Origin: Gammaproteobacteria bacterium
Lineage (GTDB): Bacteria; Pseudomonadota; Gammaproteobacteria; Eutrophobiales; Eutrophobiaceae
Length of the DNA stretch: 64,000 nt
NCBI GenBank assembly: GCA_965116495.1
Contig: OZ220696.1
Location: forward strand, 3,616,001 to 3,680,000
Direction of reading: 5' to 3'
In this document: piece by piece, positions 18,104-55,979 of the stretch
Layout: the number at the start of each line of letters is the position of its first letter
Position numbering within the stretch: the stretch's first letter is position 1
The notes under the pieces: generated by a model
Database searches by the model: none
What the model saw: only the letters and a program-made list of their open reading frames with translations
Told to the model about the DNA's origin: nothing
Translations under genes and position numbers: made by a program

Positions 18104-18328
18104 GATGACATTCTCCGTTTCAGTTCAGGTGATGTTTAGAAATAAACAGGATCTGAGTATAGAGCAAATTCACTTTTACACAATACCGGCCACACCCGCT
18201 CCTAAATTTGGGACACCCACAAATTCCTGGGTTCCGGCGCCCCCGTCGTTCCAGCGCAGGCCGGAACCCAGAACTCCGAACGTCGTTCCGGCGCAAGCCG
18301 GAACCCAGAAATTCATGGATGCCCCAAA

Positions 18329-18928: not shown

Positions 18929-19048
18929 GATGACATTCTCCTTTTCAGTTCAAGTGGTGTTTAGAAATAAACAGGACCTGAGTATAGAGCAAATTCACTT
19001 TTACACAATACCGGCCACACCCGCTCCTAAATTCAGGACACCCACAAA

Positions 19049-19630: not shown

Positions 19631-19889
19631 GATGACATTCTCCGTTTCAGTTCAGGTGATGTTTAGAAATAAACAGGACCTGAGTATAGAGCAAATTCAC
19701 TTTTACACAATACCGGCCACACCCGCTCCTAAATTCAGGACACCCATGAATTTCTGGGTTCCGGCTTGCGCCGGAACGACGAGGGCGCCGGAACGACGCG
19801 GGCTGGGCTGATTTGGGACACCCAAAAATTACTTTGCGGGAAGATCAGTGACAGGTTTCAACCTGTCCCAAATTTATGGATGTCCCAAA

Positions 19890-30342: not shown

Positions 30343-30762
30343 TCAGCCTTTGATGTTGAAACGCCGGGTCAGGTAATACTGCACCATCTCCTGCTCGTCG
30401 GGACGGCCGGCACAATCGCCGGCGTTTTCACCGGGGCACAACACGCTGATAATGGAGTCGTTTTCCGATTCCTCGAATTTAAGCTCTGCCCGCGTGCGCA
30501 GGCTCTCGACCAGGTCGGCAGCGAGGCTGTTTGATATCTGGTTACGCTTGACAGGGCACTCGGACCGGCTGCAGGCGACCTTCCTGAAGAACGCCACCTT
30601 GCCCTGTTTGTACAACTGGCCGTATTGGCTACCGACACCGCTGCTGCCGGTACTGATGGAACCGGAGGCGAGAGTGGCGGGTGAGAGCAGGGTGACCAGT
30701 GCGCTAAAACAGACAACGACATACAACAGATCTTTTATTGAAGGCTTCAGACAGATCATCAT
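30343..30762 (-). CDS. hypothetical secreted protein with four Cys
   Basis: Signal-peptide-like N-terminus; co-oriented with the downstream cluster. Confidence 0.55.
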   Translation of the reverse strand: MMICLKPSIKDLLYVVVCFSALVTLLSPATLASGSISTGSSGVGSQYGQLYKQGKVAFFRKVACSRSECPVKRNQISNSLAADLVESLRTRAELKFEESENDSIISVLCPGENAGDCAGRPDEQEMVQYYLTRRFNIKG

Positions 30763-30898
30763 TATCCTCTCTCTATAGAGTGAGCATGAACTTAACGAGA
30801 AACTAATGGGTTTATAAATATATCGGGATAGTGAGTCAAGGATTATTTGTTACAGAGGTTTGCGGACAACGTGATTTATGGGTGTCCTGAATTATCAT

Positions 30899-30914
30899 TG
30901 TGAGTTTTATCACA
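30899..30914. promoter_or_regulatory. CRP-type box upstream of tRNA-like copy 1
   Basis: TGTGA-GTTTTA-TCACA; -10 TAAAAT at 30955-30960. Confidence 0.7.
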
Positions 30915-31007
30915 AAAGACGACAGATTTTCTGCAGCAGAAAACGGGAACCGGATAAAATCGACAGGTATAGAAAAACCCGTCCCCCGAGAAGGACGGGT
31001 CGTTTTT

Positions 31008-31109
31008 GCCCGGGTGGTGAAACTGGTAAACACAGGGGACCGTCACTCCCCCGGCCTCTGTAGTACAAGCTACATGCCTTACGGGTTCGAAGCCCGTCCC
31101 GGGCAGCCA
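31008..31109 (+). tRNA. tRNA-like element copy 1: Leu-type body, GUC anticodon, 29-nt variable arm (slightly degenerate)
   Basis: GCCCGGG/CCCGGGC acceptor stem, GTG..GG..CAC D arm, GGGGA-CCGTCAC-TCCCC anticodon arm, ACGGG-TTCGAAG-CCCGT T arm, ends AGCCA. Confidence 0.75.
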
Positions 31110-31120
31110 AAGGCCGTGTC

Positions 31121-31149
31121 AGTATCCTACAGGGATGGAGGGTTGTCAA
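31121..31149 (-). promoter_or_regulatory. sigma70 promoter antisense to tRNA-like copy 1
   Basis: TTGACA-17bp-GATACT on the minus strand. Confidence 0.7.
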
Positions 31150-31729
31150 ACTGTTTTGGGCAACGGGTTTGAACAGGGATGAGCAGGATTTACACTGCGG
31201 GGCACGGGACGGACTCCCGCTTACAACCCTGCCTCGGGGGCCAGGGCAGGCATGCGGGGGCATGCTTGAAGTCCGCTGGATTCCTCTAATTTATGGGTGT
31301 CCCAAATTACCCTTTGCATCCGCCACATGCGTTTGACTGTTGATTCAGGTTCACCTGATTCAGGACACTCAGCACAGAGACACCCATCCCCCTCTGTGCC
31401 CTCTGTGGCAAACAAATAATCGTACCCGATAATAGGTTCAGCAGCCCGGGCGATGTCTTCCGATTACGCCGGGCGCGGCGGTATTCTTTTGCCGAGCATT
31501 TCCAGGGCCGCTCATTGAATACCTTGCAGTACAGGCGCATTGGACAAGACCCGGCGCAGTGGCTGCACAAACGAAGAGCGTATTTACCCGATTCTCAGGC
31601 CCGGGGAACTACCATAGCAGTCACTCCTGCCCTGGAGGCAGAGTAGCTGGTCTGGCTCTACCGTGAGCAGTAATTAGTAAAACCAAAGAATTCGTTTACT
31701 TCTATCTGATATAACAGGAGAAAAAAGTT

Positions 31730-34700
31730 ATGGCAACTGTACAAGAGATGATGCCTGAAGCGGCCCACAGCATCGACACCTCCTACACGATATCTGCTGG
31801 CGATGTGTTCGCAGGCGGAATTACTCGTGGCGATGAAGACTGGATTAAGATCGAGATGAGTGAAGGCAAGCAATACACCATCACTGTCGGGGGCGGTGAG
31901 GGCGGAATGCTGAACGACTCCATCCTCAAGCTGATGGACGGCAAGGGCGGCGTGATCGAGATGAATGACGATACGGACCCCGCCAACGGCAAACTGGGTT
32001 CCGCAATTCACGTTCACCCCGGAGGTACCGGCAGCGGCACGCAGACGTACTATCATCAGTGTCAGCGGCTATAGCGACAATCCGGGCGCAAGTGAATGCC
32101 GGCACCTACACGCTCAGTGTCACAGCGATAGACGTGCTGCCGACCGGCGAGGGTGCGGACATCGAGGGTACGGGTGGCGCCGACAAGCTCACCGGCACGG
32201 CTGATGGCGAGTCCATCGCGGGTCTGGGCGGCAACGACACCATATACGGTGGTGGTGGCGACGACAGCCTGAGCGGTGGCGCAGGTGCTGACTTGCTCAT
32301 GGGCGGTGCGGGCGCCGACACGCTGAGAGGTGGTTCCTCCACGTATGATATTGATGGTGATGGTCCAGGGACAGCAACTGATGAGCACCGGGACACCATA
32401 TCCTACAAGTATTCACCGATGGGTGTCACCATCAACCTGAACGCCGGTACGGCCAGCGGTGGCGATGCCGAGGGTGATGACCTCGGCACGGACATTGAGA
32501 ATGTCATAGGTTCCATGCACGACGACGTGTTGACCGGCACGGATAACGTCAACGTGGGTAACAGTTTGTGGGGTTTGGGCGGAAACGACATTCTCTCCGG
32601 TAGAGAGGGCGAAGACATGCTCTACGGCGGCGCCGGCGATGACATGCTGGACGGCGGCGATGAGAACGATACCCTGGAAGGTGGCTATGGCGCGGATGAG
32701 TTAACCGGTGGTCTGGGCGCGGATACCGCCTCCTACGCCAGTTCCATGATGGGCGTAACGGTACGGCTGCATTCCGGCCAGGCCATGGGCGGCGACGCCG
32801 AAGGCGATACCTGGGGCGACACGGTGACCGTAGAGTACAGCATGCCGGCTGAGGACCCTGAAGATCCCCCTGTTCTAAAGGAGGAGACGGTACCTGATAT
32901 CGTCCACCTGACCGGTTCTCACATGGCCGACATACTGGCCGGCGACAGCAGGGACAACACCATTATGGGTATGGGCGGCGATGACAAGATCTACGGCGGC
33001 CCCGGTGGCGGTGATGACGTGCTGCACGGTGGTGGTGGCGCTGACATGCTGTTCGGCGGTATAGGCGCTGACGATCTCCATGGTGGTGACGGCGATGACA
33101 TGCTGCATGGCGGCCCTGGCGCTGACGATTTTTATGGCGGCGCCGGTAATGACATGATCTATGCGGATCTTGATGATGATGTTATTGACGGAGGAAGTAA
33201 TCCAGCAGGACATCCACCGGATATGGACACCGTCTCATTTGCAAGATTGGTGGATATGAACGTTGGAACGAGTGCAGATGACCCATTTACCCTTGGGGCT
33301 CGCGCAGAGGATAGAACAATACCCGCTGATGTTGATGCAGTAAACATCGAGCGTGTCATCGGTACGGACGAGGATGATTTTATAACCGGTGCAGATGAGT
33401 CAGCAGACGATGAAAATGACGCAGGGGAAGAAATCGAAGGCGGCGACGGTGGCGATACGCTTGTTGGCGGTGTTGGTGGCGGGGATACCGTATCCTATGA
33501 AAGTTCCGACCGGCGCGTGCGGGTGGATCTTGGCGATGGCACTGCCACCGGAGAGGCCGGATCGAGCAACTCCGGCGGTCACGCCACGGGCGACACCATC
33601 TCCGGTTTTGAAGACATCAAGGGTTCGGCCCATGGCGACGTTCTGCAAGGCCTGACTGGGACTGAAACGACGACTGGAACGGTTACTGCGACCGGCAGCA
33701 CGCTATGGGGTCTCGGCGGCGATGACTCCCTGACAGGCGGCTTTGATAATGACACCATTGAAGGCGGTGCCGGCGCTGATGAGGTAGATGGTGGCTTCAC
33801 CGCCAGTACTACCGAGGGAGTAGTGGGTACGAATACCCAAGCTAACACCTTGTCATACGCCGGTTCGGATGCGGGCGTAACGGTGAATCTGGTTACTTCA
33901 ACCGCATCAGGCGGTCATGCCGATGGTGATGAAATTGAAACCTACGAACTCACGCTCAATGAAGGCGGAGATAATGAGACGGAAATCGATGTTGCCACCT
34001 TCGTAAACGTGACCGGGTCAATGCATGATGACCACTTGACCGGTGACATGTTCAATAACCATCTCGCAGGCGGCGCCGGTGATGACAGACTGAGCGGTGG
34101 TGCCGGAGCGGATGTACTTGCTGGTGGCCCGGGGGCCGACAGGCTGGACGGTGGTGAGGATGCGAATGAAAGGAATAACATGGTACCTGATCCTGATGGG
34201 GACGAAGGTGCTATGATGGCTGCTTCAGAAGACTGGGCAGCTTATCGCGGCGCCATGGAAGGTGTTACGGTGAACCTGAACACAGGCAACGGTACGGGTG
34301 GTGACGCCATGGGTGACACGCTCAAGAATGTTGAGTTGGTATGGGGTTCCGCGCATGCTGATACGTTCGTAGCCAGTGAGGGTGCCGACATCATCCACGG
34401 TGATGGTGGCAGTGACACCGTATCCTACGAAGCATCGAAGCATGGGGTTACCGTCAATATGGCGGGTGATAACCCAGTGAACGTTGTTGATACGACCTTC
34501 ACTGCGGCTACTGATACTGATGGTACTCCGGGTAACGAGGATGACACACCGGACATATATAACCCTGCTACTGATGCAATCGTTACGGCATGGAGAGGTG
34601 GTAACTTTACCGAAAGGCCAACCGCTGTCGAGGACTTCGGTACCGATGCAACGAACAAAAGCTACGCCAAAGGCGACGTACTGGCCAGCATTGAGAACAT

Positions 34701-35295
34701 AACCGGTTCCCGTCAGGACGACAACATTACCGGTGATGCCGTTCCCAATACCCTCAAAGGCGGCGCCGGCAATGATGAGTTGAGCGGTGGTGGTCAGAAT
34801 GACAAGCTGTACGGCGAAGCCGGGAACGACGCCCTGAACGGCGATGCAGGTGATGACATGCTCATGGGTGGTGATGGCAATGATGACCTGGACGGTGGTG
34901 AAGGTGCTGACACCCTGAACGGTGGTGCCGGCGATGATGACCTGACCGGTAGCGGCGGCGCTGACACTTTTGTCTTCAGCCCGGGCGACGGAGATGACGT
35001 CATCGTTACGTTCGCTGAGGCAGACGACAAGATTGACCTGAGTGCGTTCGGTCTCGATGCGGATGAATTGAAAGCTGCCATCAGTGTACGTGCCGGTAAT
35101 ACTGTCATCAATCTGAATGATTACGGTGGCGGCACAATCACGCTTCAGGGTACCGATATAGACGTTCTTGAGAAGGGTACAAATGCTGAGGAAAATGAGA
35201 TCGAGACGCTGAGCGTCCGTGTGGATCTCAACAACGATGGTGACTTTGGAGATACAGTTGATGGTGTTGCTGAAGATGGTATCTTCATTATCTGA
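31730..35295 (+). pseudogene. RTX calcium-binding protein 2, frameshifted near 32010-32090 (real or sequencing error)
   Basis: ORFs 31730-32074 and 32059-35295 join into a paralog of 39528-43052; four small insertions relative to that gene. Confidence 0.8.
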
Positions 35296-35349
35296 TCAGC
35301 CGAGGTATTAGTAAACTAATCTTCCTGATTTCACGGAAGTAAACGATCG

Positions 35350-35400
35350 CAGGGGCGGTTTAGACGGGGAAACCTGTCTAAACTGGCCCCTGTTTTATTT
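35350..35400 (+). terminator. intrinsic terminator of RTX gene 2
   Basis: CAGGGGCGGTTTAGAC..GTCTAAACTGGCCCCTG plus TTTTATTT, with compensatory changes relative to the gene 1 copy. Confidence 0.75.
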
Positions 35401-35417
35401 GTACCCTACAGGACCGT

Positions 35418-35446
35418 TTGACAAACCGAAATCCAGTTACGATAAT
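35418..35446 (+). promoter_or_regulatory. sigma70 promoter antisense to tRNA-like copy 2
   Basis: TTGACA-17bp-GATAAT. Confidence 0.72.
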
Positions 35447-35461
35447 CATGACCGGTGCCTT

Positions 35462-35562
35462 TGGTGCCTGGGACGGGACTCGAACCCGTAAGGCTTGTAG
35501 GTTTCGCTGCAAATACCGGGGGAGTGACAATCCCCCGTGTTTACCGATTTCACCACCCGGGC
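35462..35562 (-). tRNA. tRNA-like element copy 2: Leu-type body, GUC anticodon, long variable arm
   Basis: GCCCGGGTGGTGAAATCGGTAAACACG-GGGGA-TTGTCAC-TCCCC-(29 nt)-ACGGG-TTCGAGT-CCCGT-CCCAGGC-ACCA; one C-A mismatch in the acceptor stem. Confidence 0.8.
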
Positions 35563-35570
35563 AAAAACGA

Positions 35571-35598
35571 CCCGTCCCTTTCGAGGGATGGGTTTTTT
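35571..35598 (+). terminator. terminator for the antisense transcript of copy 2
   Basis: CCCGTCCCT-TTCG-AGGGATGGG-TTTTTT. Confidence 0.75.
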
Positions 35599-35655
35599 AA
35601 CGCCCATTGATTGTATAAAACCCCCGTCTTGCGCAAAGCGAAACCTGATCAGATT

Positions 35656-35671
35656 TGTGAGAAAACTCACA
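35656..35671. promoter_or_regulatory. CRP-type box shared by divergent promoters
   Basis: TGTGA-GAAAAC-TCACA; TACAAT (minus, 35610-35615) and TATAAT (plus, 35712-35717) are equidistant from it. Confidence 0.72.
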
Positions 35672-35758
35672 GCCTCCCCAAAAAATATCTCACTCCGCCC
35701 CCTAGGCAGACTATAATCAACCCTGGCGTTTCATCAACAAAGAAGGATACGGGAAAAC

Positions 35759-36055
35759 ATGTCAATGGAATTAATTGCCTTGACAGGTATCGGCGTAACG
35801 GTAATCAGTACCGGCGTTGCACTGGCCGCCCTTATCCTGAATACCCAACGCAACCTGCGAGTGGAGATGCAGGCCCAGCGGGCGGAGACGAAGACAGAAT
35901 TCAAGGCTGTGCGGGAGGACATGCAGGCCCAGCGGGAAGCAATAATCAGCTTACTGGAACGCATGGCGCACCTGGAAGGATTGCTTGAGGGCCTGCGTGA
36001 GGCCATCACCGGCCGGCGCGTGGCTGAAGAAACGGGAAAATACAATACGCGCTGA
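35759..36055 (+). CDS. small N-anchored coiled-coil protein, family A (short)
   Basis: TM N-terminus, EFKAVRED unit, ERMAHLEGLLEG; paralogs at 37970 and 45256. Confidence 0.75.
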   Translation: MSMELIALTGIGVTVISTGVALAALILNTQRNLRVEMQAQRAETKTEFKAVREDMQAQREAIISLLERMAHLEGLLEGLREAITGRRVAEETGKYNTR

Positions 36056-36237
36056 ACAGCGGCGCAACCTCTCGAGTAATCCAGGACACCCTCAGCGCAT
36101 CTACCTAATTTATGGGTGTCCCAAATTACACCGGCCTCCTACGAGGCATCGTCGTTGGGCGTCACGGTGGACCAGAGCAGTGACACTCAGCACAGGACAG
36201 TGGTGACAGGCGGTACGGGCACTGAAGCTGATCCCTT

Positions 36238-36314
36238 TCTGATTTCACGGAAGTAAACGATCGCAGGGGCGGTTCAGACGGGGCAATCCGTTTGGACTGG
36301 CCCCTGTTTTATTT
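36238..36314 (+). terminator. orphan copy of the RTX 3' trailer and terminator
   Basis: CTGATTTCACGGAAGTAAACGATCGCAGGGGC..GCCCCTGTTTTATTT with no upstream RTX gene. Confidence 0.7.
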
Positions 36315-36343
36315 CTGCCTTCCTTTTTGTGATGGGTCGTGTA

Positions 36344-36604
36344 TCAGGAAAAGATCCTGTAGGCAATCGCAAGGATAAAGGGATAAAGGGAAAACACAGC
36401 GAACTTCAAGACCTTCAGTTCGGCGTTCATATCAGAGCGTAGCCCCTGTATGTCCGATTTCAATTCAGTACGCAGTTCCTGCAGGTCGGTTTTCGTTGCC
36501 AGGTTGTCGGTGACAGGCACGACGCCTGCTGCGGCCTTCGCTTTCTCTTCGGACGTTCCGGCTTCCACCAGGGCTTCGTAGATTTCGGCAATCATCATGC
36601 TCAT
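36344..36604 (-). CDS. small coiled-coil protein with C-terminal anchor, family D (DUF1640-like)
   Basis: EIYEALVEAGTSEEKAKAAA, LATKTDL, hydrophobic tail. Confidence 0.75.
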   Translation of the reverse strand: MSMMIAEIYEALVEAGTSEEKAKAAAGVVPVTDNLATKTDLQELRTELKSDIQGLRSDMNAELKVLKFAVFSLYPFILAIAYRIFS

Positions 36605-36687
36605 GCTCTCTCTCCATGTATGTTTATCAGATGTCTATTATATTATCAACGCGGGCAAACGTATTCAAACAGGAGTTCGACGTTTCA

Positions 36688-36703
36688 TGTGAGTTTTGTC
36701 ACA
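36688..36703. promoter_or_regulatory. CRP-type box
   Basis: TGTGA-GTTTTG-TCACA, 19 bp upstream of TTGACG. Confidence 0.68.
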
Positions 36704-36798
36704 AATATCGAAAAAAAAACCGTTGACGGTCTCCATATGTATATTTTACAGTGAGTGTCACTTGAAATTAAGGGAACGGGCGAATCGGGACATACAAC

Positions 36799-37191
36799 AT
36801 GTCTATGGAAATAATAACCATCGTCAGCCTCGGTTTAACGGTAATCACAGTCGGCATCATGCTGGCCGGTCTTATTCTGACTGGTCAGCGCGCCCTTCGG
36901 GCAGAGATGAATGGCCAGCGGGGAGACATCAAGTCCCTGCGGGAAGAAATGCGGTCGGAGTTCAAGGCCGTGCGGGAAGAGTTGCATGCTTACCGGGAGG
37001 AGACCCAGAGAGAATTCAAGGCCGTGCGCGAGGAGATAGGCGGTTTGCGCGAGGAGATAGGCGGTTTGCGCGAACGCATGGCGCATGTAGAAGGACTGCT
37101 TGAGGGCCTGCTGCGTGAAGCCTTCATCGGCAGGCGCGCAGCGCCGGCGGAAGCCGTGGCTGAGGACCCCGGCCCATACGATAAACGCTGA
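36799..37191 (+). CDS. small N-anchored coiled-coil protein, family B
   Basis: TM N-terminus, REEIGGL heptads, ERMAHVEGLLEG..PYDKR. Confidence 0.75.
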   Translation: MSMEIITIVSLGLTVITVGIMLAGLILTGQRALRAEMNGQRGDIKSLREEMRSEFKAVREELHAYREETQREFKAVREEIGGLREEIGGLRERMAHVEGLLEGLLREAFIGRRAAPAEAVAEDPGPYDKR

Positions 37192-37316
37192 CCTGTCCCT
37201 TCCTGCTCATCCCTGTTCCAACCCGTTGCCCAAAACCGATTGACAACGAACCCCGGCCAAGCCATACTGCCCGAACGATTAACTGGAAGTTGTAACAGTA
37301 AAGGAGGTACACCCCA

Positions 37317-37604
37317 ATGATAAATCAGGAAGCCCAACTGAACGGCAGCACGGAAGCCTTTGCCCGCGCCTTTTCCAACCTGGTAAAGGACGCCACCTCA
37401 CACTTGGCCACCAAGGAAGATTTGGACAACGTGGTTGCCAACATGGCCACTAAGGAAGATTTGGACAACGCGGTTGCCAACATGGCTACCAAGGAGGATA
37501 TCAATGAACTGTCAGACCGGATAGACACGACCGACAAGCACATGCAGACCCAGTTTGCCCGACAGGAAGAGAAAATCGCCGACATAGCCCGGAAACTGGA
37601 TTGA
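37317..37604 (+). CDS. small coiled-coil protein, family C (ATKEDL repeats)
   Basis: SD AGGAGG, promoter TTGACA-17bp-CATACT at 37240-37268, three ATKED units. Confidence 0.75.
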   Translation: MINQEAQLNGSTEAFARAFSNLVKDATSHLATKEDLDNVVANMATKEDLDNAVANMATKEDINELSDRIDTTDKHMQTQFARQEEKIADIARKLD

Positions 37605-37969
37605 GCCCGAGGGGCTGATACACCACCCGGGCAAGAACGACCCGTCCCTCTCGGGGGCGGGATTTTTTATGGTAATTCAGGACACTCGCAAATTATCCTG
37701 CCTGCAAGAGGCAGTTTCCCACATACTTGACATGAATGAATGACGGACTGGGTTCCTGCTTTCGTAGGAACGACGGGTCGTGTCAAGAATCTTTCGTACT
37801 TTCTGTCCGACCCTGGAAGGCTACAGGTACGGCTATCTAATTTATGGGTGCCTGAATTACTCTACCCCGTTATAGAGGTTTGCGGACAACGTGATTTATG
37901 GGTGCCCTGAATTACTCTACCCCGTCACGCTGAGGGTGTCCTGGATTACTCGAGAGGTTGCGCCGGTGT

Positions 37970-38407
37970 TCAGCGCGTATTGTATTTTCCTGTTTCTTCA
38001 GCCACGCGCCGGCCGGTGATGGCCTCACGCAGGCCGTCAAGCAATCCTTCCAGGTGCGCCATGCGTTCCAGTAAGCTGATGATTGCTTCCCGCTGGGCCC
38101 GCATGTCCTCTCGCACAGCCTTGAATTCTGTCTTCGTCTCCTCTCGCACAGCCTCGAATTCTGTCTTCGCCTCCTCCCGCTGGGCCTGCATGTCCTCCCG
38201 TACAGCCTCGAATTCTGTCTTCACCTCCGCCCGCTGGGCCCGCATGTCCTCCCGCACAGCCTTGAATTCTGTCTTCGTCTCCGCCCGCTGGGCCCGCATC
38301 TCCACCCGCAGGTTGCGTTGGGTATTCAGGATAAGGGCGGCCAGTGCAACGCCGGTACTGATTACCGTTACGCCGATACCTGTCAAGGTAATTAATTCCA
38401 TTGACAT
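37970..38407 (-). CDS. small N-anchored coiled-coil protein, family A (medium)
   Basis: Same termini as 35759 with four EF(K/E)AVRE units. Confidence 0.75.
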   Translation of the reverse strand: MSMELITLTGIGVTVISTGVALAALILNTQRNLRVEMRAQRAETKTEFKAVREDMRAQRAEVKTEFEAVREDMQAQREEAKTEFEAVREETKTEFKAVREDMRAQREAIISLLERMAHLEGLLDGLREAITGRRVAEETGKYNTR

Positions 38408-38523
38408 GATGTATTTTCCTCAGTCTCCTTGTGTAGTCAGCGCCGGCCTGTTATCCACCGGTTCTGAGTTATCCTTAATATAAAGATACGGTTTGAACCT
38501 GTCCAAACATCTTTTCCCGAGTT

Positions 38524-38539
38524 TGTGGGTTTTATCACA
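38524..38539. promoter_or_regulatory. CRP-type box (one mismatch)
   Basis: TGTGG-GTTTTA-TCACA upstream of a TGGACA-17bp-TATATT promoter on the minus strand. Confidence 0.6.
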
Positions 38540-38667
38540 TGCCACCGCAGGTTAACAATTGAACGGCGTAAACTTGGACACTACCTCCAATTTGTGGGTG
38601 TCCCAAATTACGCCGTGCATCGTGCGACCTGACCCCGGCTTCCCGGTGTTGCAGATTAGGCGCCAGG

Positions 38668-38985
38668 TCAGCGTTTATCGTATGGGCCGGGACCCTCAGC
38701 CACGGCCTCCGCCGGCGCTGCGCGCCTGCCGATGAAGGCTTCACGCAGCAGGCCCTCAAGCAGTCCTTCCACATGCGCCATGCGCTCCCGCAAACCGCCT
38801 ATCTCCTCCCGCACGGCCTTGAATTCTCTCTGGGCCTCCTCCCGGTGAGCATGCAGCTCTCCCCGCAGGGACTGTATGTCTCCCCGCTGGCCATTCATCT
38901 CTGCCCGAAGGGCGCGCTGACCAGTCAGAATAAGACCGGCCAGCGCCACGGCGGTGCTGATGATGGCAATTAATTCCATTGACAT
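38668..38985 (-). CDS. small N-anchored coiled-coil protein, family B (with a family A-type leader and start)
   Basis: MSMELIA start and upstream region match the 35759 gene; the body matches the 44674 gene. Confidence 0.75.
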   Translation of the reverse strand: MSMELIAIISTAVALAGLILTGQRALRAEMNGQRGDIQSLRGELHAHREEAQREFKAVREEIGGLRERMAHVEGLLEGLLREAFIGRRAAPAEAVAEGPGPYDKR

Positions 38986-39072
38986 GTTTTCCCGTATCCT
39001 TCTTTGTTGATGAAACGCCAGAGTCGATTATAGCCTGCCTGGGGGCCGGAGTGAGATATTTTTTGGGGAGGC

Positions 39073-39088
39073 TGTGAGTTTTCTCACA
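39073..39088. promoter_or_regulatory. CRP-type box
   Basis: TGTGA-GTTTTC-TCACA; inverted copy of the 35656 context. Confidence 0.68.
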
Positions 39089-39527
39089 AATCTGATCAGA
39101 TTTCGCTTTGCGGCAGACGGGGGTTTTATACAATCAATGGGCACTAAAAAACCTGGTAATTCAGGACACCCACAAATTATCCTGCCTGCAAGAGGCAGTT
39201 TCCCACATACTTGACATGAATGAATGACGGACTGGGTTCCTGCTTTCGCAGGAACGACGGGTCGTGTCAAGAATCTTTCGCACTTTCTGTCCGACCCTGG
39301 AAAGCTACAGGTACGGCCATCTAATTTATGGGTGTCCTCCCGTCATTCTGGCGAACGCCAGAATCCATAGGTAACTCGGTAAATGACTGGGTTCCGGGTC
39401 AAGCCCGGAACGACTGGGGGGGTACAAATAAAACAGGGGCCAGTCTAAACGGGTTGCCCCGTCTAAACCGCCCCTGTGATCGTTTACTTCCGTGAAATCA
39501 GGAAGATTTTGGTTTTGTTGCCTATGG

Positions 39528-42500
39528 TTATACGATAAAGATACCGTCTGTGGCATCGGTTCCGTCACCTATGCCATCTTCAGCACCATTCGTATCATTA
39601 AGGACAAGTGCTATACCGATTGTAGCTGTCAGTACGGCTATAGTCTGATCCTGAATGGTAATTCTGCCGCCACCGTAGTCTTCCAGGTTAACGACAACAT
39701 TGCCGGCACGCTCGCTGAGGAGGCCTTCCATATCGCCCGGCCTGATCCCGAAAGCCGTGAGGTCGATGTAATCGCCATCGCCGGTACGATTCGTGGCGTC
39801 GCCAGCAGCAGTCGGCGCTAATTCAATGTCGATAATGACGTCGCTTCCGTTGCCCGGGGTGAAGACAAAAGTGTCTATGCCTGTACCACCGGTCAGGTCA
39901 TCATCACCAGCGCCACCATTTATGGTGTCATTACCGGCGCCGCCATTTATGGTGTCATTGCCGGCGTCACCGTACATCATGTCATTGCCTGCGTCAGTAG
40001 CTGCAGCCTCTCCACGATCACTGTTATCGTTGTCGTCATTCAAGTCCGCTTCAGCTCTTTCGCCTATTACATCATTGCCGGCGCCGCCGTGCAGCTTGTC
40101 ATTTCCATCGCCGCCACTAATCCTGTCAGGGCCGCCGCCGCCTTTGATGACATTGGGAGTGGCATCGCCGACAATAACGTCGTCCTGACGGGAACCGGTC
40201 ACGTTCTCAATGCTGGCCAGTACGTCACCTTCGGCGTAGCTCTTGGTCGTTGTCAAAGTATCTGGTTCCTGGACAGCTACCGGCCTCGGAGTATTTGTAC
40301 TACCTCCTCTCCATTCCTCAACAATTGCATCAGTAGCACTGATAAACGCATTATCATCGTCATTGCCCTCAATATCATCGGGGCCGTTGGCATCGAACGT
40401 AGTAGCATCGTTACCAACCAATTCTACAGTCACGCCATGCTTCGATGCTTCGTAGGATACGGTGTCACTGCCGCCATCACCGTGGATGATGTCGGCACCC
40501 TCACTGGCTACGAACGTATCGTCGTGCATAGAGCCCCATATCAATTCGATATTCTTGAGCGTGTCACCCATGGCGTCTCCACCCGTGCCCATGCCGGTGT
40601 TCAGGTTCACCATCACACCGTCCATAGCGCCGCGGTAGGCTGCCCAGTCTTCGTGCTCTACATCAGGGGTATCAGCATTTTCATCATGGTTCCATTTGCT
40701 GCTTCCACCATCCAGCCTGTCAGCACCCGGGCCACCAGCGAGTATGTCCGCTCCGGCGCCACTGCGCAGGTTGTCGTCACCAGCGCCGCCTTCGAGATGG
40801 TTATCGAACCTGTCACCGGTCAAGTGGTCATTATGCATCGACCCGGTCACGTTTACGAAGGTGGAAACATCTATATCTTCGTCATCGTCATCAGTAGTGG
40901 TGCCCTTGTCATCAAGAAACTCGTAGGTCTCAATTTCATCCCCCTGGGCATGACCGCCTGATGCGGTGGAAGTAGCCAGGTTCACTGTGACGCCCGCATC
41001 CGAACTGGCATAGGACAAGGTGTTTACTTGGCTACTTTCATCAACATCGTCTGTATCTTGAGTTACGCCGCCATCCAGCTCATCAGCGCCGGCGCCGCCT
41101 TCCAGGGTGTCATTGCCGTCTTCACCCGTCAGAGTGTCATCGCCGTCGAGACCCCAGAGTATGCTACCTTGGATACCGCCAGTATTAGGATCGGTATCAT
41201 TCGACCGGGCTGTCAGGTTGTCGTCAAAGGCCGAACCCCTGACGTTTTCAAAGCCGGCAATGTCGTCACCTGATGCATGGCCGCCGGAGGCGGTTGCGGT
41301 AGTTGCGTCGAGAGTATCCTCGCCAGCAGCCAAGTCAACCCGCACACCCCTGTCCGAATTCTCATAGGACACAGTATCACCTATGCCAGTACCACCTATA
41401 AGATCGTCCGCCCCATCGCCACCTTCGATGATTTCAGGGGCAGCGTTTGTGCCTGTCAACGTATCATCCTCGTCGGTGCCGATGAGAGTTTCAATAGAAA
41501 CAAAACGAGGAAGACCCAGATTGATATCGACTCCTTCCTTGTTCCTGGCGTAGGAAAGGGTGTCGTTCTCACCCGGCGCATTATCAGTCATCTCGTTAAA
41601 ATCCGTCGTCATCCCATCGTCCGCCATTGCAGCACCGGAAATGGTTCCGCTATCACCTGTGTTCGCCATGTCGTATATCATGTCACTGCCGGCGCCGCCG
41701 TAATAATCGTCATCGCCCGAACCGCCACTCAGCATGTCATTGCCGCCACCGCCATGGAGATCGTCATTGCCTATACCGCCGAACAGCATGTCAGCGCCGC
41801 CACCACCGTGCAGCACGTCATCACCACCGCCGGGGCCGCCGTAGATCTCGTCATCGCCGCCCATACCCATAATGGTGTTGTCCCTGCTGTCGCCGGCCAG
41901 TATGTCGGCCATGTGAGAACCGGTCAGGTGGACGATATCAGGTACCGTCTCCTCCTTTAGAACAGGGGGATCTTCAGGGTCCTCAGCCGGCATGCTGTAC
42001 TCTACGGTCACCGTGTCGCCCCAGGTATCGCCTTCGGCGTCGCCGCCCATGGCCTGGCCGGAATGCAGCCGTACCGTTACGCCCATCATGGAACTGGCGT
42101 AGGAGGCGGTATCCGCGCCCAGACCACCGGTTAACTCATCCGCGCCATAGCCACCTTCCAGGGTATCGTTCTCATCGCCGCCGTCCAGCATGTCATCGCC
42201 GGCGCCGCCGTAGAGCATGTCTTCGCCCTCTCTACCGGAGAGAACGTCGTTTCCGCCCAAACCCCACAATTTGTTACCCACGTTGACGTCATCCGTGCCG
42301 GTAATCGTGTCGTCGTGCATGGAACCTATGACATTCTCGATATCCGTACCGAGGTCATCACCCTCGGCGTCGCCGCCCCTGGCTGTGCCGTCATTCAGGT
42401 TGATGGTCACACCCATCGGGGAATACCTGTAGGTTATGGTGTCCTCACCGAGGCCACCCCTGAGCGTATCGGCGCCCGCACCGCCCATGAGCAGGTCGTT

Positions 42501-43052
42501 ACCGGGGCCACCGCTCAGGCTGTCGTCGCCGCCACCACCGTATATAGTATCATTGCCGCCCAGACCCGCGATGGATTCGCCATCAGCCGTGCCGGTGAGC
42601 TTGTCGGCGCCACCCGTACCCTCGATGTCCGCACCCTCGCCGGTCGGCAGCACGTCTATCGCTGTGACACTGAGCGTGTAGGTGCCGGCATTCACTGCGC
42701 CCGGATTGTCGCTATAGCCGCTGACACTGATGAAGTACGTCTGCGTGCCGCTGCCGGTCTCCGGGGTGAACGTGATTGCGGAACCCAGTTTGCCTTTGGC
42801 GGGGTCCGTATCGTCATTCATCTCGATCACGCCGCCCTTGCCGTCCATCAGCTTGAGGATGGAGTCGTTCAGCGTTCCGCCCTCACCGCCCCCGACAGTG
42901 ATGGTGTATTCCTTGCCCTCACTCATCTCGATCTTAATCCAGTCTTCATCGCCACGAGTAATTTCGCCTGCGAACGTATCGCCGGCAGATATCGTGTAGG
43001 AGGTGTCGATGCTGTGGGCCGCTTCAGGCATCATCTCTTGTACAGTTGCCAT
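39528..43052 (-). CDS. RTX calcium-binding protein 3
   Basis: GGxGxDxLx repeats; paralog of genes 1 and 2; trailer and terminator at 39426-39510. Confidence 0.9.
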   Translation of the reverse strand: MATVQEMMPEAAHSIDTSYTISAGDTFAGEITRGDEDWIKIEMSEGKEYTITVGGGEGGTLNDSILKLMDGKGGVIEMNDDTDPAKGKLGSAITFTPETGSGTQTYFISVSGYSDNPGAVNAGTYTLSVTAIDVLPTGEGADIEGTGGADKLTGTADGESIAGLGGNDTIYGGGGDDSLSGGPGNDLLMGGAGADTLRGGLGEDTITYRYSPMGVTINLNDGTARGGDAEGDDLGTDIENVIGSMHDDTITGTDDVNVGNKLWGLGGNDVLSGREGEDMLYGGAGDDMLDGGDENDTLEGGYGADELTGGLGADTASYASSMMGVTVRLHSGQAMGGDAEGDTWGDTVTVEYSMPAEDPEDPPVLKEETVPDIVHLTGSHMADILAGDSRDNTIMGMGGDDEIYGGPGGGDDVLHGGGGADMLFGGIGNDDLHGGGGNDMLSGGSGDDDYYGGAGSDMIYDMANTGDSGTISGAAMADDGMTTDFNEMTDNAPGENDTLSYARNKEGVDINLGLPRFVSIETLIGTDEDDTLTGTNAAPEIIEGGDGADDLIGGTGIGDTVSYENSDRGVRVDLAAGEDTLDATTATASGGHASGDDIAGFENVRGSAFDDNLTARSNDTDPNTGGIQGSILWGLDGDDTLTGEDGNDTLEGGAGADELDGGVTQDTDDVDESSQVNTLSYASSDAGVTVNLATSTASGGHAQGDEIETYEFLDDKGTTTDDDDEDIDVSTFVNVTGSMHNDHLTGDRFDNHLEGGAGDDNLRSGAGADILAGGPGADRLDGGSSKWNHDENADTPDVEHEDWAAYRGAMDGVMVNLNTGMGTGGDAMGDTLKNIELIWGSMHDDTFVASEGADIIHGDGGSDTVSYEASKHGVTVELVGNDATTFDANGPDDIEGNDDDNAFISATDAIVEEWRGGSTNTPRPVAVQEPDTLTTTKSYAEGDVLASIENVTGSRQDDVIVGDATPNVIKGGGGPDRISGGDGNDKLHGGAGNDVIGERAEADLNDDNDNSDRGEAAATDAGNDMMYGDAGNDTINGGAGNDTINGGAGDDDLTGGTGIDTFVFTPGNGSDVIIDIELAPTAAGDATNRTGDGDYIDLTAFGIRPGDMEGLLSERAGNVVVNLEDYGGGRITIQDQTIAVLTATIGIALVLNDTNGAEDGIGDGTDATDGIFIV

Positions 43053-43223
43053 AACTTTTTTCTCCTGTTATATCAGATAGAAGTAAACGAATTCTTTGGT
43101 TTTACTAATTACCGAGTATTAGAAGCAGCGTGATTGTCAGTAATGCCCCCTTATAATTGGAATACTGCAGGGTTTTCTGCAGCGATAATGTAAAGAACTA
43201 AAATAGCTTTGAGGATATTAATC

Positions 43224-44192
43224 ATGATGAAACCGATCGAAAGGAAGAGCAGTTTTTATGATGACGTGCTTTTTTCGTCACTGTCGAAGAACACCCGCAT
43301 CGCTTATGACAAGGGCTGGTCTTGTTTTCAAGACTACTGTGTGCAGAAAAGCGTAAACCCGATAGCTGCGACGCCTGATCATGTAGCTGATTTCTTTATT
43401 GACATGGGGTCACGCGCCAATACAGCCAATGGGAAAAAGTTATCAATTGGCACGCTTTACCTGTATAGAAGTGCGATAAACAGGCGGTATGTGGAAGCAC
43501 ACAAATCTTCACCCACAAAACACCTGAAGGTGAATGCCGTCCTGAAAGGATTGGCGCGTATGCGCGGCACTGCTCCGCGCCAGGTGCTGGCTTTGCGGGA
43601 GCACCATATCCTGTGTATGTTGGAGCAGTGTGGCGACAGTCTTATCGGTCTGCGCAACGCGGCGATAATTTCGCTTGGTTTCTCGGCTGCCTTGCGCCGG
43701 TCTGAAATATGTGCGCTCCGGATAGACGATATTCAAATCATTTCACCAGGCCATGGAGACGATAACCGTAAGATGCTTGTGCATATCCGAAAATCGAAAA
43801 CGGACCAGACAGGGAAAGGTCAACGCATCGCGGTGCCGGATGGTCAAAGGATAAAACCGATAAAACGCCTGGAAGATTGGCTTCAGTCCTCAGGTATCAC
43901 GCGGGGATTCGTGTTTCAAACGATGGCGCGCGGCGGTAGTTTGCGTGGACGTCCTTTGCATTCTGTGGATATTCCCCGTCTGTTGAAACATTACGCCGAA
44001 ACAATTGGCTTGGACCCTGACGAGGTCTCCGGCCACTCACTGCGAGCAGGCTTTGTGACCAGTGCGGCCGTGCACCATGCGCGGCTCGATAAAATCATGG
44101 AAATTACCCGCCATACAAACCCGGAAATGGTGATGAGATACATTCGGGACGTGGGGTTATTCGATAATCACGCCGGAAAGGATTTTTTGTAG
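43224..44192 (+). CDS. Cre-like tyrosine recombinase/integrase
   Basis: LRRSEI (R), KSKTDQ (K), GHSLRAG (HxxR), RHT (H), RYIR (Y); catalytic set appears intact. Confidence 0.92.
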   Translation: MMKPIERKSSFYDDVLFSSLSKNTRIAYDKGWSCFQDYCVQKSVNPIAATPDHVADFFIDMGSRANTANGKKLSIGTLYLYRSAINRRYVEAHKSSPTKHLKVNAVLKGLARMRGTAPRQVLALREHHILCMLEQCGDSLIGLRNAAIISLGFSAALRRSEICALRIDDIQIISPGHGDDNRKMLVHIRKSKTDQTGKGQRIAVPDGQRIKPIKRLEDWLQSSGITRGFVFQTMARGGSLRGRPLHSVDIPRLLKHYAETIGLDPDEVSGHSLRAGFVTSAAVHHARLDKIMEITRHTNPEMVMRYIRDVGLFDNHAGKDFL

Positions 44193-44329
44193 CGGCAATT
44201 TAGGACACCCATGAATTCCTGGGTTCCGGCTTGCGCCGGAACGACGGGGAGGCAGCAATTTAGGACACCCATAAATTGGCGGTAATTCTGCAACCAGGAT
44301 AACGTAAATTGATGAGTACCCAAAACTGT

Positions 44330-44358
44330 TTGACAACCCCCCATCCCTGTAGGATACT
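44330..44358 (+). promoter_or_regulatory. sigma70 promoter antisense to tRNA-like copy 3
   Basis: TTGACA-17bp-GATACT. Confidence 0.72.
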
Positions 44359-44369
44359 GACATCACCTT

Positions 44370-44470
44370 TGGTGCCCGGGACGGGACTCGAACCCGTAAG
44401 GCATGTAGTTTTGGCTACAGAGGCCGGGGGAGTGGCAATCCCCTGTGTTTACCGATTTCACCACCCGGGC
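44370..44470 (-). tRNA. tRNA-like element copy 3: Leu-type body, GCC anticodon, long variable arm, all stems perfect
   Basis: GCCCGGG-TG-GTGAAATCGGTAAACAC-A-GGGGA-TTGCCAC-TCCCC-CGGCCTCTGTAGCCAAAACTACATGCCTT-ACGGG-TTCGAGT-CCCGT-CCCGGGC-ACCA. Confidence 0.85.
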
Positions 44471-44478
44471 AAAAACGA

Positions 44479-44506
44479 CCCGTCCCTTTCGGGGGACGGG
44501 TTTTTT
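44479..44506 (+). terminator. terminator for the antisense transcript of copy 3
   Basis: CCCGTCCC-TTTCGG-GGGACGGG-TTTTTT. Confidence 0.75.
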
Positions 44507-44563
44507 AATGCCCGTTGATTGTATAAAACCCCCGTCTTGCGCAGCGGAGAATATGCGTCGATT

Positions 44564-44579
44564 TGTGACAAAACTCACA
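44564..44579. promoter_or_regulatory. CRP-type box shared by divergent promoters
   Basis: ATTTGTGA-CAAAAC-TCACAAAT; TACAAT (minus, 44518-44523) and TTGACG-17bp-TATAGT (plus). Confidence 0.72.
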
Positions 44580-44673
44580 AATGTCGGAGAAAAACCCGTT
44601 GACGGTCTCCATGCATATACTTATAGTGAGTGTCACTTGAAATTAAGGGAACGGGCGAATCGGGACATACAAC

Positions 44674-45012
44674 ATGTCTATGGAAATAATAACCATCGTC
44701 AGCCTCGGTTTAACGGTAATCACTGTCGGCATCATGCTGGCCGGTCTTATTCTGACTGGTCAGCGCGCCCTTCGGGCAGAGATGAATGGCCAGCGGGGAG
44801 ACATACAGTCCCTGCGGGGAGAGCTGCATGCTCACCGGGAGGAGGCCCAGAGAGAATTCAAGGCCGTGCGGGAGGAGATAGGCGGTTTGCGGGAACGCAT
44901 GGCGCATGTGGAAGGACTGCTTGAGGGCCTGCTGCGTGAAGCCTTCATCGGCAGGCGCGCAGCGCCGGCGGAAGCCGTGGCTGAGGGTCCCGGCCCATAC
45001 GATAAACGCTGA
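44674..45012 (+). CDS. small N-anchored coiled-coil protein, family B
   Basis: Paralog of 36799 with fewer repeats. Confidence 0.75.
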   Translation: MSMEIITIVSLGLTVITVGIMLAGLILTGQRALRAEMNGQRGDIQSLRGELHAHREEAQREFKAVREEIGGLRERMAHVEGLLEGLLREAFIGRRAAPAEAVAEGPGPYDKR

Positions 45013-45123
45013 CCTGGCGCCTAATCTGCGACACCCGCAACAGCAACCGGCGTAATTTGGGACACCCACAAATTGGAGGTAGTGTCCAAGTTTACGCCGT
45101 TCAATTGTTAACCTGCGGTGGTA

Positions 45124-45139
45124 TGTGACAAAACCCACA
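45124..45139. promoter_or_regulatory. CRP-type box (one mismatch)
   Basis: TGTGA-CAAAAC-CCACA, 18 bp upstream of TGGACA-17bp-TATATT. Confidence 0.6.
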
Positions 45140-45255
45140 AACTCGGGAAAAGATGTTTGGACAGGTTCAAACCGTATCTTTATATTAAGGATAACTCAGA
45201 GCCGGTGGATAACAGGCCGGCGCTGACTACACAAGGAGACTGAGGACAATACATC

Positions 45256-45801
45256 ATGCCAATGGAATTAATTGCCTTGACAGGTATCGGCGTAACGGTA
45301 ATCAGTACCGGCGTTGCACTGGCCGCCCTTATCCTGAATACCCAACGCAACCTGCGGGTGGAGATGCAGGCCCAGCGGGCGGAGGCAAAGACAGAATTCA
45401 AGGCTGTGCGGGAGGAGACGAACGCAGAATTCAAGGCTGTGCGGGAGGACATGCGGGCCCATCGGGAGGAGGTGAAGACAGAATTCAAGGCTATGCGGGA
45501 GGACATACAGGCCCAGCGGGCGGAGGTGAAGACAGAATTCAAGGCTATGCGAGAGGACATGCAGGCCCAGCAGGAGGAGACGAAGACAGAATTCAAGGCT
45601 GTGCGGGAGGACATGCAGGCCCATCGGGCGGAGGTGAAGACAGAATTCAAGGCTATGCGGGAGGAGATGCGGGCCCAGCGGGAGGCAATAATCAGCTTAC
45701 TGGAACGCATGGCGCACCTGGAAGGATTGCTTGAGGGCCTGCGTGAGGCCATCACCGGCCGGCGCGTGGCTGAAGAAACGGGAAAATACAATACGCGCTG
45801 A
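45256..45801 (+). CDS. small N-anchored coiled-coil protein, family A (long)
   Basis: Six EFKA(V/M)RE units. Confidence 0.75.
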   Translation: MPMELIALTGIGVTVISTGVALAALILNTQRNLRVEMQAQRAEAKTEFKAVREETNAEFKAVREDMRAHREEVKTEFKAMREDIQAQRAEVKTEFKAMREDMQAQQEETKTEFKAVREDMQAHRAEVKTEFKAMREEMRAQREAIISLLERMAHLEGLLEGLREAITGRRVAEETGKYNTR

Positions 45802-55653: not shown

Positions 55654-55654
55654 C

Positions 55655-55860: not shown

Positions 55861-55979
55861 ACTATCGTTCGCAAATGACGATCGTCCACAGGAATGACGA
55901 TAGTTCGCAGGAATAGTACATACTTGTCATCATAGCTGTTAGACTATCCGCATTATTTATCAGCAGTACGAGCTAGCTT

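Follow-up and report, generated by a model that had tools for sequence, protein, structure and literature searches.

A tRNA-Leu-derived gene with a conserved antisense partner in an RTX locus of marine Gammaproteobacteria: a candidate antisense-gated, mis-decoding tRNA

The window analysed here, a stretch of 64,000 nucleotides from contig OZ220696.1 of a gammaproteobacterium, is an RTX / type I secretion locus in which an element of ~330 bp occurs three times, at 30.9-31.15 kb (sense strand +), 35.42-35.67 kb (sense strand -) and 44.33-44.58 kb (sense strand -), with 80% mean column identity among the aligned copies. Each copy sets a tRNA-like gene against a promoter and terminator on the opposite strand. 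The reading put forward, at a probability of roughly 0.4, is that the element encodes an antisense-gated tRNA that would mis-decode by placing leucine at GGY and GAY codons, in an arrangement resembling an RNA-RNA toxin-antitoxin pair. That the antisense strand controls the tRNA, whatever the tRNA itself does, has slightly better than even odds. At the level of sequence comparison, descent from tRNA-Leu, an anticodon confined to GYC, tRNA-like conservation, an invariant antisense promoter and terminator, and location in an RTX locus are all well established.

Copies were collected by BLAST over 41 related genomes and fetched regions, which gave an unbiased set of 34, and by pattern scans of public genome and metagenome contigs, which gave 10 more for a total of 44; given that the scan pattern fixed G34 and C36, those 10 say nothing about the anticodon. 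Throughout the 44, the antisense promoter has an exact TTGACA, a 17-bp spacing and a -10 of the form NAYAMT (GATAAT in 32, GATACT in 7, GACAAT and CATAAT in 2 each, AATAAT in 1), and its spacer differs at 49% of pairwise positions; the alignments point to conservation of the promoter beyond chance. The -10 ends 14-20 nt ahead of the discriminator base, and the predicted antisense RNA consequently spans the whole tRNA-like gene. At the far side of the gene a hairpin is present in 44 of 44, and in 41 of the 43 parsed copies it carries an antisense U-run (an A-run in sense orientation) of 6-8 nt. Mismatches within this hairpin are all A-C in the sense orientation and pair as G-U in the antisense RNA only (9 cells versus 0). 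Modules range from ~190 to 330 bp, and the smallest duplicated unit, found head to tail in G009, G004 and L044, measures 190 bp; given that the -35 of one such unit abuts the U-run of the next, the minimal repeat is exactly the interval from antisense promoter to terminator. The predicted antisense RNAs are 141-148 nt long (~145), with fold z-scores of -2.0 to -3.2. Judged by these comparisons, the antisense unit is the best-conserved part of the module and a conserved gene in its own right.

The original prediction, drawn from the letters of the window, had described much of this layout, and most of it holds. The promoter scan (threshold 9 of 12 matches) recovers the three antisense promoters that it had placed facing the element, all directed into the tRNA-like gene, with that of copy 2 the top promoter-like site across 30500-45500 (15 kb). 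The GC hairpin and U-tract that it saw beyond the 5' end are called by the terminator scan in copies 1 and 3; the hairpin of copy 2 is not called by that scan and forms in the fold of the 148-nt predicted antisense RNA (z = -2.8). The antisense RNA that it put at ~150 nt is here predicted at 141-148 nt, and its interval 35418-35671 is copy 2 exactly. The RNA-RNA (type VIII-like) pairing that it envisaged would involve full complementarity by construction, the two RNAs being encoded on opposite strands of the same DNA. Coordinates of these features, and of neighbouring ones taken up below, are collected in Table 1.

Table 1. Features of the three window copies, partial modules and the surrounding locus (positions in the window; strand "." where no single strand is given)
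Feature	Position	Strand	Basis or remark
Copy 1 TGTGA-N6-TCACA box, Crp/Fnr-type palindrome	30899..30914	.	exact pattern match and sequence
Copy 1 sense -10-like TAAAAT	30955..30960	+	sequence; starts 48.5 bp from box centre
Copy 1 GC hairpin, terminator-like on both strands	30976..31001	.	terminator scan: + 30977-31000, - 31001-30976
Copy 1 tRNA-Leu-derived tRNA-like gene, anticodon GUC, C33, one extra G before CCA	31008..31109	+	alignments
Copy 1 antisense promoter TTGACA-17-GATACT	31121..31149 (read 31149-31121)	-	promoter scan, 10/12 matches
Copy 2 antisense promoter TTGACA-17-GATAAT	35418..35446	+	promoter scan, 11/12 matches
Copy 2 tRNA-like gene, anticodon GUC, C4-A69 acceptor-stem mismatch, encoded CCA	35462..35562	-	Rfam RF00005
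Copy 2 hairpin 35570-35593, then T6 35594-35599 on + (terminator of predicted antisense RNA)	35570..35599	.	sequence, fold
Copy 2 sense -10-like TACAAT	35610..35615 (start 35615)	-	sequence
Copy 2 TGTGA-N6-TCACA box	35656..35671	.	pattern match
Copy 3 antisense promoter TTGACA-17-GATACT	44330..44358	+	promoter scan, 10/12 matches
Copy 3 tRNA-like gene, anticodon GCC, intact cloverleaf, 27-nt variable region, encoded CCA	44370..44470	-	Rfam RF00005
Copy 3 hairpin and T-run, terminator-like on both strands	44477..44508	.	scan: + 44477-44502, - 44501-44478; fold z = -3.2
Copy 3 sense -10-like TACAAT	44518..44523 (start 44523)	-	sequence
Copy 3 TGTGA-N6-TCACA box	44564..44579	.	pattern match
Truncated module: box and sense -10 retained, GGACACCC repeat element in place of hairpin and tRNA-like gene	39073..39153	+	BLAST, sequence
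Remnant: hairpin and first 12 nt of tRNA-like gene, terminator behind gene 37317-37604	37621..37671	-	BLAST, sequence
Second hairpin and 5'-end remnant	53234-53268		BLAST, sequence
Four giant RTX-repeat genes	21126-24752, 32059-35295, 39528-43052, 46841-52441		
prtD, hlyD, tolC	53911-58909		
Xer-like tyrosine recombinase	43209-44192		ends 180 bp from copy 3 tRNA-like 3' end

The gene on the sense strand has the genome's own tRNA-Leu(UAA) as its parent, with which it shares the acceptor stem (GCCCGGG/CCCGGGC), A73 and CCA, and nearly the whole D arm. Its anticodon loop, UUGCCAC or UUGUCAC, resembles those of the real tRNA-Gly(GCC) and tRNA-Asp(GUC), and the variable region has grown from 16 nt in the parent to ~29 nt and holds a 5-bp hairpin; the Rfam alignment and the pair counts give 7 bp for the acceptor stem and 5 bp for the T stem. 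The T arm is of the tRNA-Asp type, which reflects either a chimeric origin or convergent change at two base pairs; when window positions 44373-44400 were set against 1123384-1123461 of G000, the window's genome, the body apart from this arm was that of tRNA-Leu(UAA). Rfam RF00005, with a gathering threshold of 29 bits, scores copy 3 at 55.8 bits (44373-44470) and copy 2 at 51.7 bits (35465-35562), and copy 1, the most degenerate of the three, gives no Rfam tRNA match even at E<=1. Among the BLAST-derived copies 27 of 34 exceed the threshold, at 45-56 bits, including 25 of the 31 in other genomes; copy 1 and six others fall below it. Of the 34 unbiased copies, 18 carry the anticodon GCC and 16 carry GUC, and a pattern that left the anticodon free returned GYC in 33 of 33 matches in 23 genomes of the genus. 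An ordinary tRNA-Leu isoacceptor would suit the class II body and A73, but is rejected on account of the anticodon (GCC or GUC in 34 of 34, where leucine would call for NAG or YAA) and the replacement of G13 and G22 by A.

Several other origins and identities were considered and set aside. Within 150-200 nt of the real tRNA-Leu(UAA) gene there is no such hairpin or antisense promoter, and descent of the flanks from that locus was therefore rejected; gene conversion with the real tRNA-Leu was likewise rejected, given that the acceptor stems of copies in G003, G004, G009 and G020 differ from the real gene's pattern. Open reading frames of 50-74 aa do run across the element, but these either pass through the terminator and variable loops or begin ahead of the point where the transcript is predicted to start, which leaves neither a coding reading nor, for want of an acceptable small toxic-peptide frame among them, a type I toxin-antitoxin system. 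A T-box, riboswitch or other tRNA-sensing leader does not agree with Rfam matches that are to tRNA only and with tandem units that each have their own promoter. Antiterminator pairing of the hairpin half GGGACGGG with the tRNA segment CCCGTCCC was dropped, there being no covariation where the hairpin changes (L032, L044).

The pattern of variation suggests that the sense strand is under selection as a tRNA. Over the 44 copies the tRNA body has a pairwise diversity of 0.08 and the flanks one of 0.49. Swaps between G-C and A-U, with both sides changing, are seen at pairs 5-68 and 6-67 of the acceptor stem and at pair 31-39 of the anticodon stem, and of the 44 copies 41 have U at position 33 and 43 have A at position 37. 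As read from the alignments, the D and T loops vary at 16, 17, 20, 59 and 60 only, the positions that vary among ordinary tRNAs. This bears directly on the possibility that the elements are decaying tRNA-Leu duplicates, carried along with RTX cassettes and without function, whose promoter and hairpin serve merely as cassette punctuation (an outward promoter and a shared terminator). Such decay would account for the reuse of the hairpin by itself, at 37621-37671 and 53234-53268, to terminate two other genes, for the degenerate state of window copy 1, L035 and the second copy of L029, and for the failure of ARAGORN to call any of the three window copies. Against it stand the low body diversity, the compensatory stem changes and a GYC-only anticodon across 13 genomes, and the antisense promoter, firing into a terminator ~145 nt away, offers no outward promoter to a downstream gene. 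Functionless decay is made unlikely by this conservation, and taken whole the proposal is scarcely credible. ARAGORN's sole call in the window, a 93-nt "tRNA-Gln(CTG)" at 15684-15776, lies inside a ~36-bp tandem repeat (cgtcgttccggcgcaggccggaacccagaactccga), has no Rfam support and is a false call, not a member of the family.

The antisense RNA could be the sole working product, a trans-acting small RNA that displays GGC or GAC loops and binds the anticodon loops of the real tRNA-Gly(GCC) and tRNA-Asp(GUC) as a sponge or sensor, or binds other targets, with the tRNA shape no more than ancestry. It is the antisense transcription unit exactly that is duplicated and perfectly conserved, hairpin mismatches are tolerable in that RNA only, internal array units lack a sense promoter, and the antisense folds are stable, as their z-scores indicate. 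Moreover, the anticodon loops of the element (UUGCCAC, CUGUCAC and variants) reproduce the loops found in the real tRNA-Gly(GCC), UUGCCAA, and tRNA-Asp(GUC), CUGUCAC, so that the antisense loops complement real tRNA loops. Yet complementarity to the real tRNAs is confined to that 7-nt loop, the D- and T-loop conservation obeys tertiary-structure rules that are relevant to the sense RNA only, and within the tRNA part the cells that pair in one RNA alone favour the sense strand, 16 (G-U in sense) versus 6 (A-C in sense, paired in antisense only). A sense -10 stands at a class I or class II distance from the box in most copies, and no second-site match to the variable-arm loop lies near any of 34 copies. 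A purely antisense function seems rather improbable.

The sense promoter itself is weak, falling under the 9-of-12 scan threshold, with a TATAnAAT-like -10 kept in most homologs. By hand count, 48.5 bp separate the start of its -10 from the centre of a TGTGA-N6-TCACA box in all three window copies, just as the original prediction had stated, and in most homologs, a spacing that places the site near -61.5; in L008, L041, L034, L028 and L032 the distance is 29.5 bp (near -41.5). These spacings correspond to the two classical CRP activation positions, class I and class II, at which a box accompanies a weak -35 as it does here, and the occurrence of two spacing classes, each at a classical position, argues that the box does serve the sense promoter. 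The expectation that homologs would keep both promoters was thus right throughout for the antisense side, where promoter and hairpin persist in 44 of 44, and right in part for the sense side, where box and -10 are kept in 35 of 43 parsed copies and absent in 8. The hairpin is terminator-like in the sense direction as well, with sense tails of 5-6 U in 8, and on this evidence the tRNA is doubly locked, by a weak promoter and by a sense-direction terminator-like hairpin. Antisense silencing of an activator-induced tRNA, as originally proposed, accordingly keeps the support of a conserved antisense unit and acquires the complication of a hairpin that precedes the tRNA.

Regarding the regulator, perfect boxes number 11 in the genome against ~3.3 expected by composition, and seven of them fall in the window (30899, 35656, 36688, 39073, 44564, 46379 and 52597). 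The genome has a single open reading frame of the cyclic-nucleotide-binding Crp/Fnr type, 245 aa long (G000 71463-71720 region). Given this concentration, the presence of boxes at divergent promoters and at sites free of tRNA-like genes, and the single Crp/Fnr-type frame, the box is best regarded as a putative island-specific operator for a Crp/Fnr-type protein, and the window boxes look like a private regulon of the RTX island. CRP-type activation, as first suggested, is in keeping with the class I/II spacing; the name CRP is uncertain, and a "CRP/cAMP" label would be a guess. The box also serves divergent promoters and is absent inside tandem arrays. The divergent promoters at copies 2 and 3 lead to genes for small membrane/coiled-coil proteins. 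Five such proteins, each with one N-terminal membrane helix and coiled-coil repeats (EFKAVREDM...), are encoded at 35759-36055, 36799-37191, 37970-38407, 38668-38985 and 44674-45012; every one of these genes lies behind a box and a strong promoter, relatives adjoin modules in other genomes, and none of the proteins matches a Pfam or NCBIfam family above threshold.

Among 23 genomes from a single genus of uncultured marine bacteria, 13 carry the element, in 1 to 10 copies each; it was not found in 103 genomes of 33 other genera in the same order. The hosts are without exception metagenome-assembled Gammaproteobacteria; scans of contigs from genomes and metagenomes, with G34 and C36 fixed in the pattern, returned the same clade only, and viral contigs gave 0 matches. 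G003 holds ten copies within 12 kb. In that array diversity reaches 0.46 in the variable-arm loop and 0.19-0.21 in the anticodon loop, the remainder of the body being at 0.01-0.02 and the flanks at 0.17-0.21, and in the seven genomes with at least two copies all 28 copies have distinct loop combinations. A local trans target for the variable-arm loop was rejected: searches around 34 copies for a second match to the loop or its complement returned the element itself and one 9-mer at 35637, which is probably a chance match. Among the copies collected, no intact tRNA-like gene lacks the antisense promoter. Conversely, in L035 (G005, 2096-2395) the tRNA-like gene is split in its D loop by an insert of ~165 bp with inverted ends and the antisense promoter, TTGACA-17-CATAAT, is intact; the degenerate window copy 1 retains its antisense promoter too. 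Retention of the antisense side in broken copies would be the decay pattern expected of toxin-antitoxin pairs. Elsewhere, between purA and rnr in L030 (G004, 2330-2706) and L031 (G009, 1969-2327), a genuine tRNA-Leu(CAG) gene with its own TTGACA-17-TAAAGT promoter is preceded, at a distance of 150 nt and in the same orientation, by a module; one array adjoins yebC-ruvC in G004 and G009.

Taken together, these observations suggest a mechanism in which the near-consensus antisense promoter and its terminator would yield, constitutively, a ~145-nt RNA fully complementary to the tRNA, which it likely pairs with and silences. Synthesis of the tRNA would require both activation of the weak sense promoter by a Crp/Fnr-type regulator at the box and readthrough of the hairpin by RNA polymerase. 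Once freed, it may still be recognised by leucyl-tRNA synthetase (LeuRS), given that A73 and the Leu-type acceptor and D arms are kept, and it could then insert leucine wherever GGY or GAY codons occur, or obstruct their decoding in some other way, with harm to the cell and to RTX synthesis above all. A stable tRNA fold opposed to a labile antisense RNA would give toxin-antitoxin behaviour, and the variable anticodon and variable-arm loops may be the exposed points at which sense and antisense begin to pair, their variation keeping each pair specific to the copy that encodes it. LeuRS reportedly takes no account of the anticodon (PMC11028032). Combined with a Leu-derived body and Gly/Asp anticodons, this makes the mistranslating tRNA of the original prediction a concrete possibility. 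Leucine mis-decoding under antisense control is thus favoured because the Leu acceptor stem, A73 and D arm are kept and LeuRS reportedly ignores the anticodon, because the antisense promoter is obligatory and a terminator stands ahead of the tRNA, because broken copies keep the antisense promoter, and because the distribution is patchy and multi-copy with private loops.

A considerable body of evidence nonetheless pulls the other way. All copies have A at positions 13 and 22, where the genome's five real tRNA-Leu genes invariably have G, and a variable arm ~13 nt longer than that of real tRNA-Leu; either change could cost the tRNA its recognition by LeuRS. The T arm shares an 18-nt stretch of identity with the real tRNA-Asp(GUC) and not with tRNA-Leu, two T-stem pairs having changed, and CCA follows A73 immediately in only 15 of 44 copies, being shifted by one nt in 15 and by three nt in 11. 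A sense transcript would meet the terminator-like hairpin after ~10 nt, and the tRNA may thus never arise from the sense promoter. The box is missing in 8 of 43 copies (internal tandem-array units and four others), and four window boxes, at 36688, 39073, 46379 and 52597, have no tRNA-like gene; that of copy 2 also lies 48.5 bp from a + strand TATAAT (35712-35717) ahead of the small transmembrane/coiled-coil gene 35759-36055, and that of copy 3 is common to a divergent promoter, TTGACG-17-TATAGT, at 44599-44627. Over the 44 copies loop diversity is 0.55, close to the 0.49 of the flanks, and the loops can consequently be called unconstrained or diversifying, with diversification unproven. The 44 copies are moreover mutually related, and their counts are not independent. 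Finally, the two anticodons are those that read ~31% of the codons in neighbouring RTX genes, which a helper tRNA fits at least equally well.

Such helper tRNAs would be charged with glycine or aspartate according to their anticodons and would supplement the single-copy tRNA-Gly(GCC) and tRNA-Asp(GUC) in translation of the giant RTX genes, whose secreted products, built on GGxGxD repeats, are rich in glycine and aspartate, the antisense RNA doing no more than tuning their level. The codons read by GCC and GUC, GGY and GAY, make up 29.6-31.4% of the window's four RTX genes as against 8.7-15.6% of six other genes, and the genome has one gene each for tRNA-Gly(GCC) and tRNA-Asp(GUC). Of 23 loci or arrays, 9 have an RTX gene that is co-oriented with the antisense RNA and ends no more than ~600 bp away on the side of the antisense promoter, when only 0.30% of G000 falls that close behind one of its 22 RTX frames; type I secretion genes are also nearby, in the window and at L021, L024 and L025. 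The Asp-type T arm is a further point in favour of helper tRNAs, given that pairs in the T stem match a tRNA's affinity for EF-Tu to its amino acid. The link to RTX genes is incomplete, however, some copies lying elsewhere (G004, G009). RTX repeats abound in all 23 genomes of the genus, 10 of which do without the element, and G003, with its ten copies, is among those with the fewest RTX matches. A73 and a tRNA-Leu acceptor stem sit poorly with charging by glycine or aspartate, for which U73 or G73 is the discriminator. A terminator ahead of the gene and a stronger opposing promoter, kept in 44 of 44, would be unexpected for a helper, which would have no need of private loops either. A helper role is rated unlikely.

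A stronger form of antisense-gated mis-decoding, which must be called doubtful, makes the tRNA the toxin of an RNA-only toxin-antitoxin or abortive-defence module, a stable Leu-charged decoder of Gly/Asp codons held under a short-lived mirror-image RNA, with the modules stabilising RTX cassettes. Were antisense transcription to stop, whether through cassette loss or through phage shut-off, the tRNA would scramble the proteome, and private loops would prevent cross-protection among up to ten pairs per genome. Another possibility is that the tRNA-like genes are attachment (att) sites at which nearby tyrosine recombinases act, with integration or excision governed by the antisense transcript. The Xer-like gene lies 180 bp from the 3' end of copy 3, another recombinase gene adjoins the second copy of L025, and the modules are patchy and sit among repeat elements; in Pseudomonas aeruginosa, an antisense tRNA-Lys over the att site of the pKLC102 island has been proposed to control excision (PMC8765398). 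Nevertheless, a tRNA-gene att site of an integrative island is rejected on the ground that BLAST of G000 reveals no partial 3'-end direct repeats, the remnants comprising hairpin and 5' end only; a recombinase stands alongside in just 2 of 23 loci, and such a role would leave both the GYC-only anticodon and the tRNA-type conservation of the loops unaccounted for. The att-site proposal is accordingly held to be most improbable.

The surroundings include further repeats and paralogs. The genome contains 204 occurrences of a palindromic repeat with the core GGACACCCA(T)AAATT / AATTTATGGGTGTCC; 100 lie between 3.5 and 3.8 Mb and 40 in the window, where the sites fall within 4673-61338 (e.g. 15622/15656, 44203, 44263 and 39164). 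The repeat flanks the recombinase gene, substitutes at 39150 for the hairpin and tRNA-like gene that the truncated module lacks, and may be a miniature mobile element or recombination site. The two hairpin remnants are terminators directly behind two ATKEDL-type-repeat genes with similar last codons and 3' ends. Four tandem paralogs of ~190 aa, with weak PD-(D/E)XK / Hjc-like matches, occupy 17543-20471.

In light of these features, the significance of an antisense-gated, mis-decoding tRNA would be considerable. If it is real, tRNA joins the list of toxin types, and deliberate mis-decoding is kept under RNA-only control, making the genetic code a weapon or a switch for cells or mobile cassettes. 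Even under milder readings, a housekeeping tRNA has been rebuilt with a new anticodon, a longer variable arm and a new T stem, given an antisense gene and multiplied in one genus. The module is small and self-contained and hence directly testable in E. coli, and natural, mutually distinct sense/antisense tRNA pairs could interest translation engineers. More broadly, given that ARAGORN misses the tRNA-like genes and that annotation pipelines would not report the antisense unit, modules of this kind may go unnoticed elsewhere. Searches of open-access papers and bioRxiv turned up no tRNA gene described as having a conserved, dedicated antisense gene, and the pairing thus appears to be undescribed.

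Similar in body plan are the allo-tRNAs, class II tRNAs with a long variable arm and anticodons for other amino acids, patchily distributed and multi-copy, some of which adjoin toxin-antitoxin genes or transposons and some variants of which killed E. coli (Mukai et al. 2017, PMC5389517). The mismatch of class II body and anticodon, the long variable arm and the patchy, multi-copy distribution are shared. Membership is nevertheless rejected: allo-tRNAs, as described there, divide a 12-bp branch 8/4 or 9/3 between acceptor and T stem and have Ser identity, whereas the present genes are 7/5 on a tRNA-Leu(UAA) chassis. They also have two anticodons only and are tied to RTX loci, and the allo-tRNA paper (PMC5389517) makes no mention of an antisense RNA.

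Whole-tRNA antisense transcripts are themselves on record in a gammaproteobacterium, RNA sequencing of Pseudomonas aeruginosa clone C having revealed them (PMC8765398). Like the predicted RNAs they complement an entire tRNA, one of them over a genomic-island att site. Unlike them, they have been detected by sequencing; their partners are ordinary tRNAs, and the account reports no dedicated, conserved promoter-terminator unit. In Bacillus cereus, tRNAOther is a pseudo-tRNA beside a genomic island with a proposed role outside normal decoding (PMC3399842). The island setting and a proposed non-decoding action are points in common, but tRNAOther belongs to a different lineage and is single-copy, and its abstract mentions neither an antisense partner nor an anticodon theme.

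Antisense RNAs that act through exposed loops are familiar from plasmids, where CopA/CopT and RNA I/RNA II exert kissing-loop control of replication. The resemblance lies in two exposed, variable loops, as if pairing and specificity were set there; the difference is that those pairs control plasmid replication, whereas loop specificity in the tRNA-like element is suggested by the pattern of diversity alone. Similar in logic are the type VIII RNA-RNA pairs SdsR/RyeA and CreT/CreA and the type I pair hok/sok, in which a harmful RNA is neutralised by a pairing small RNA. With these the element would have in common opposed or adjacent RNAs, a strong antitoxin, multi-copy and patchy occurrence, and orphan remnants of the antitoxin side. 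It would differ from them in that the candidate toxin, with no open reading frame and no protein partner, is neither a peptide mRNA nor a tRNA-sequestering mini-ORF but a decoding tRNA.

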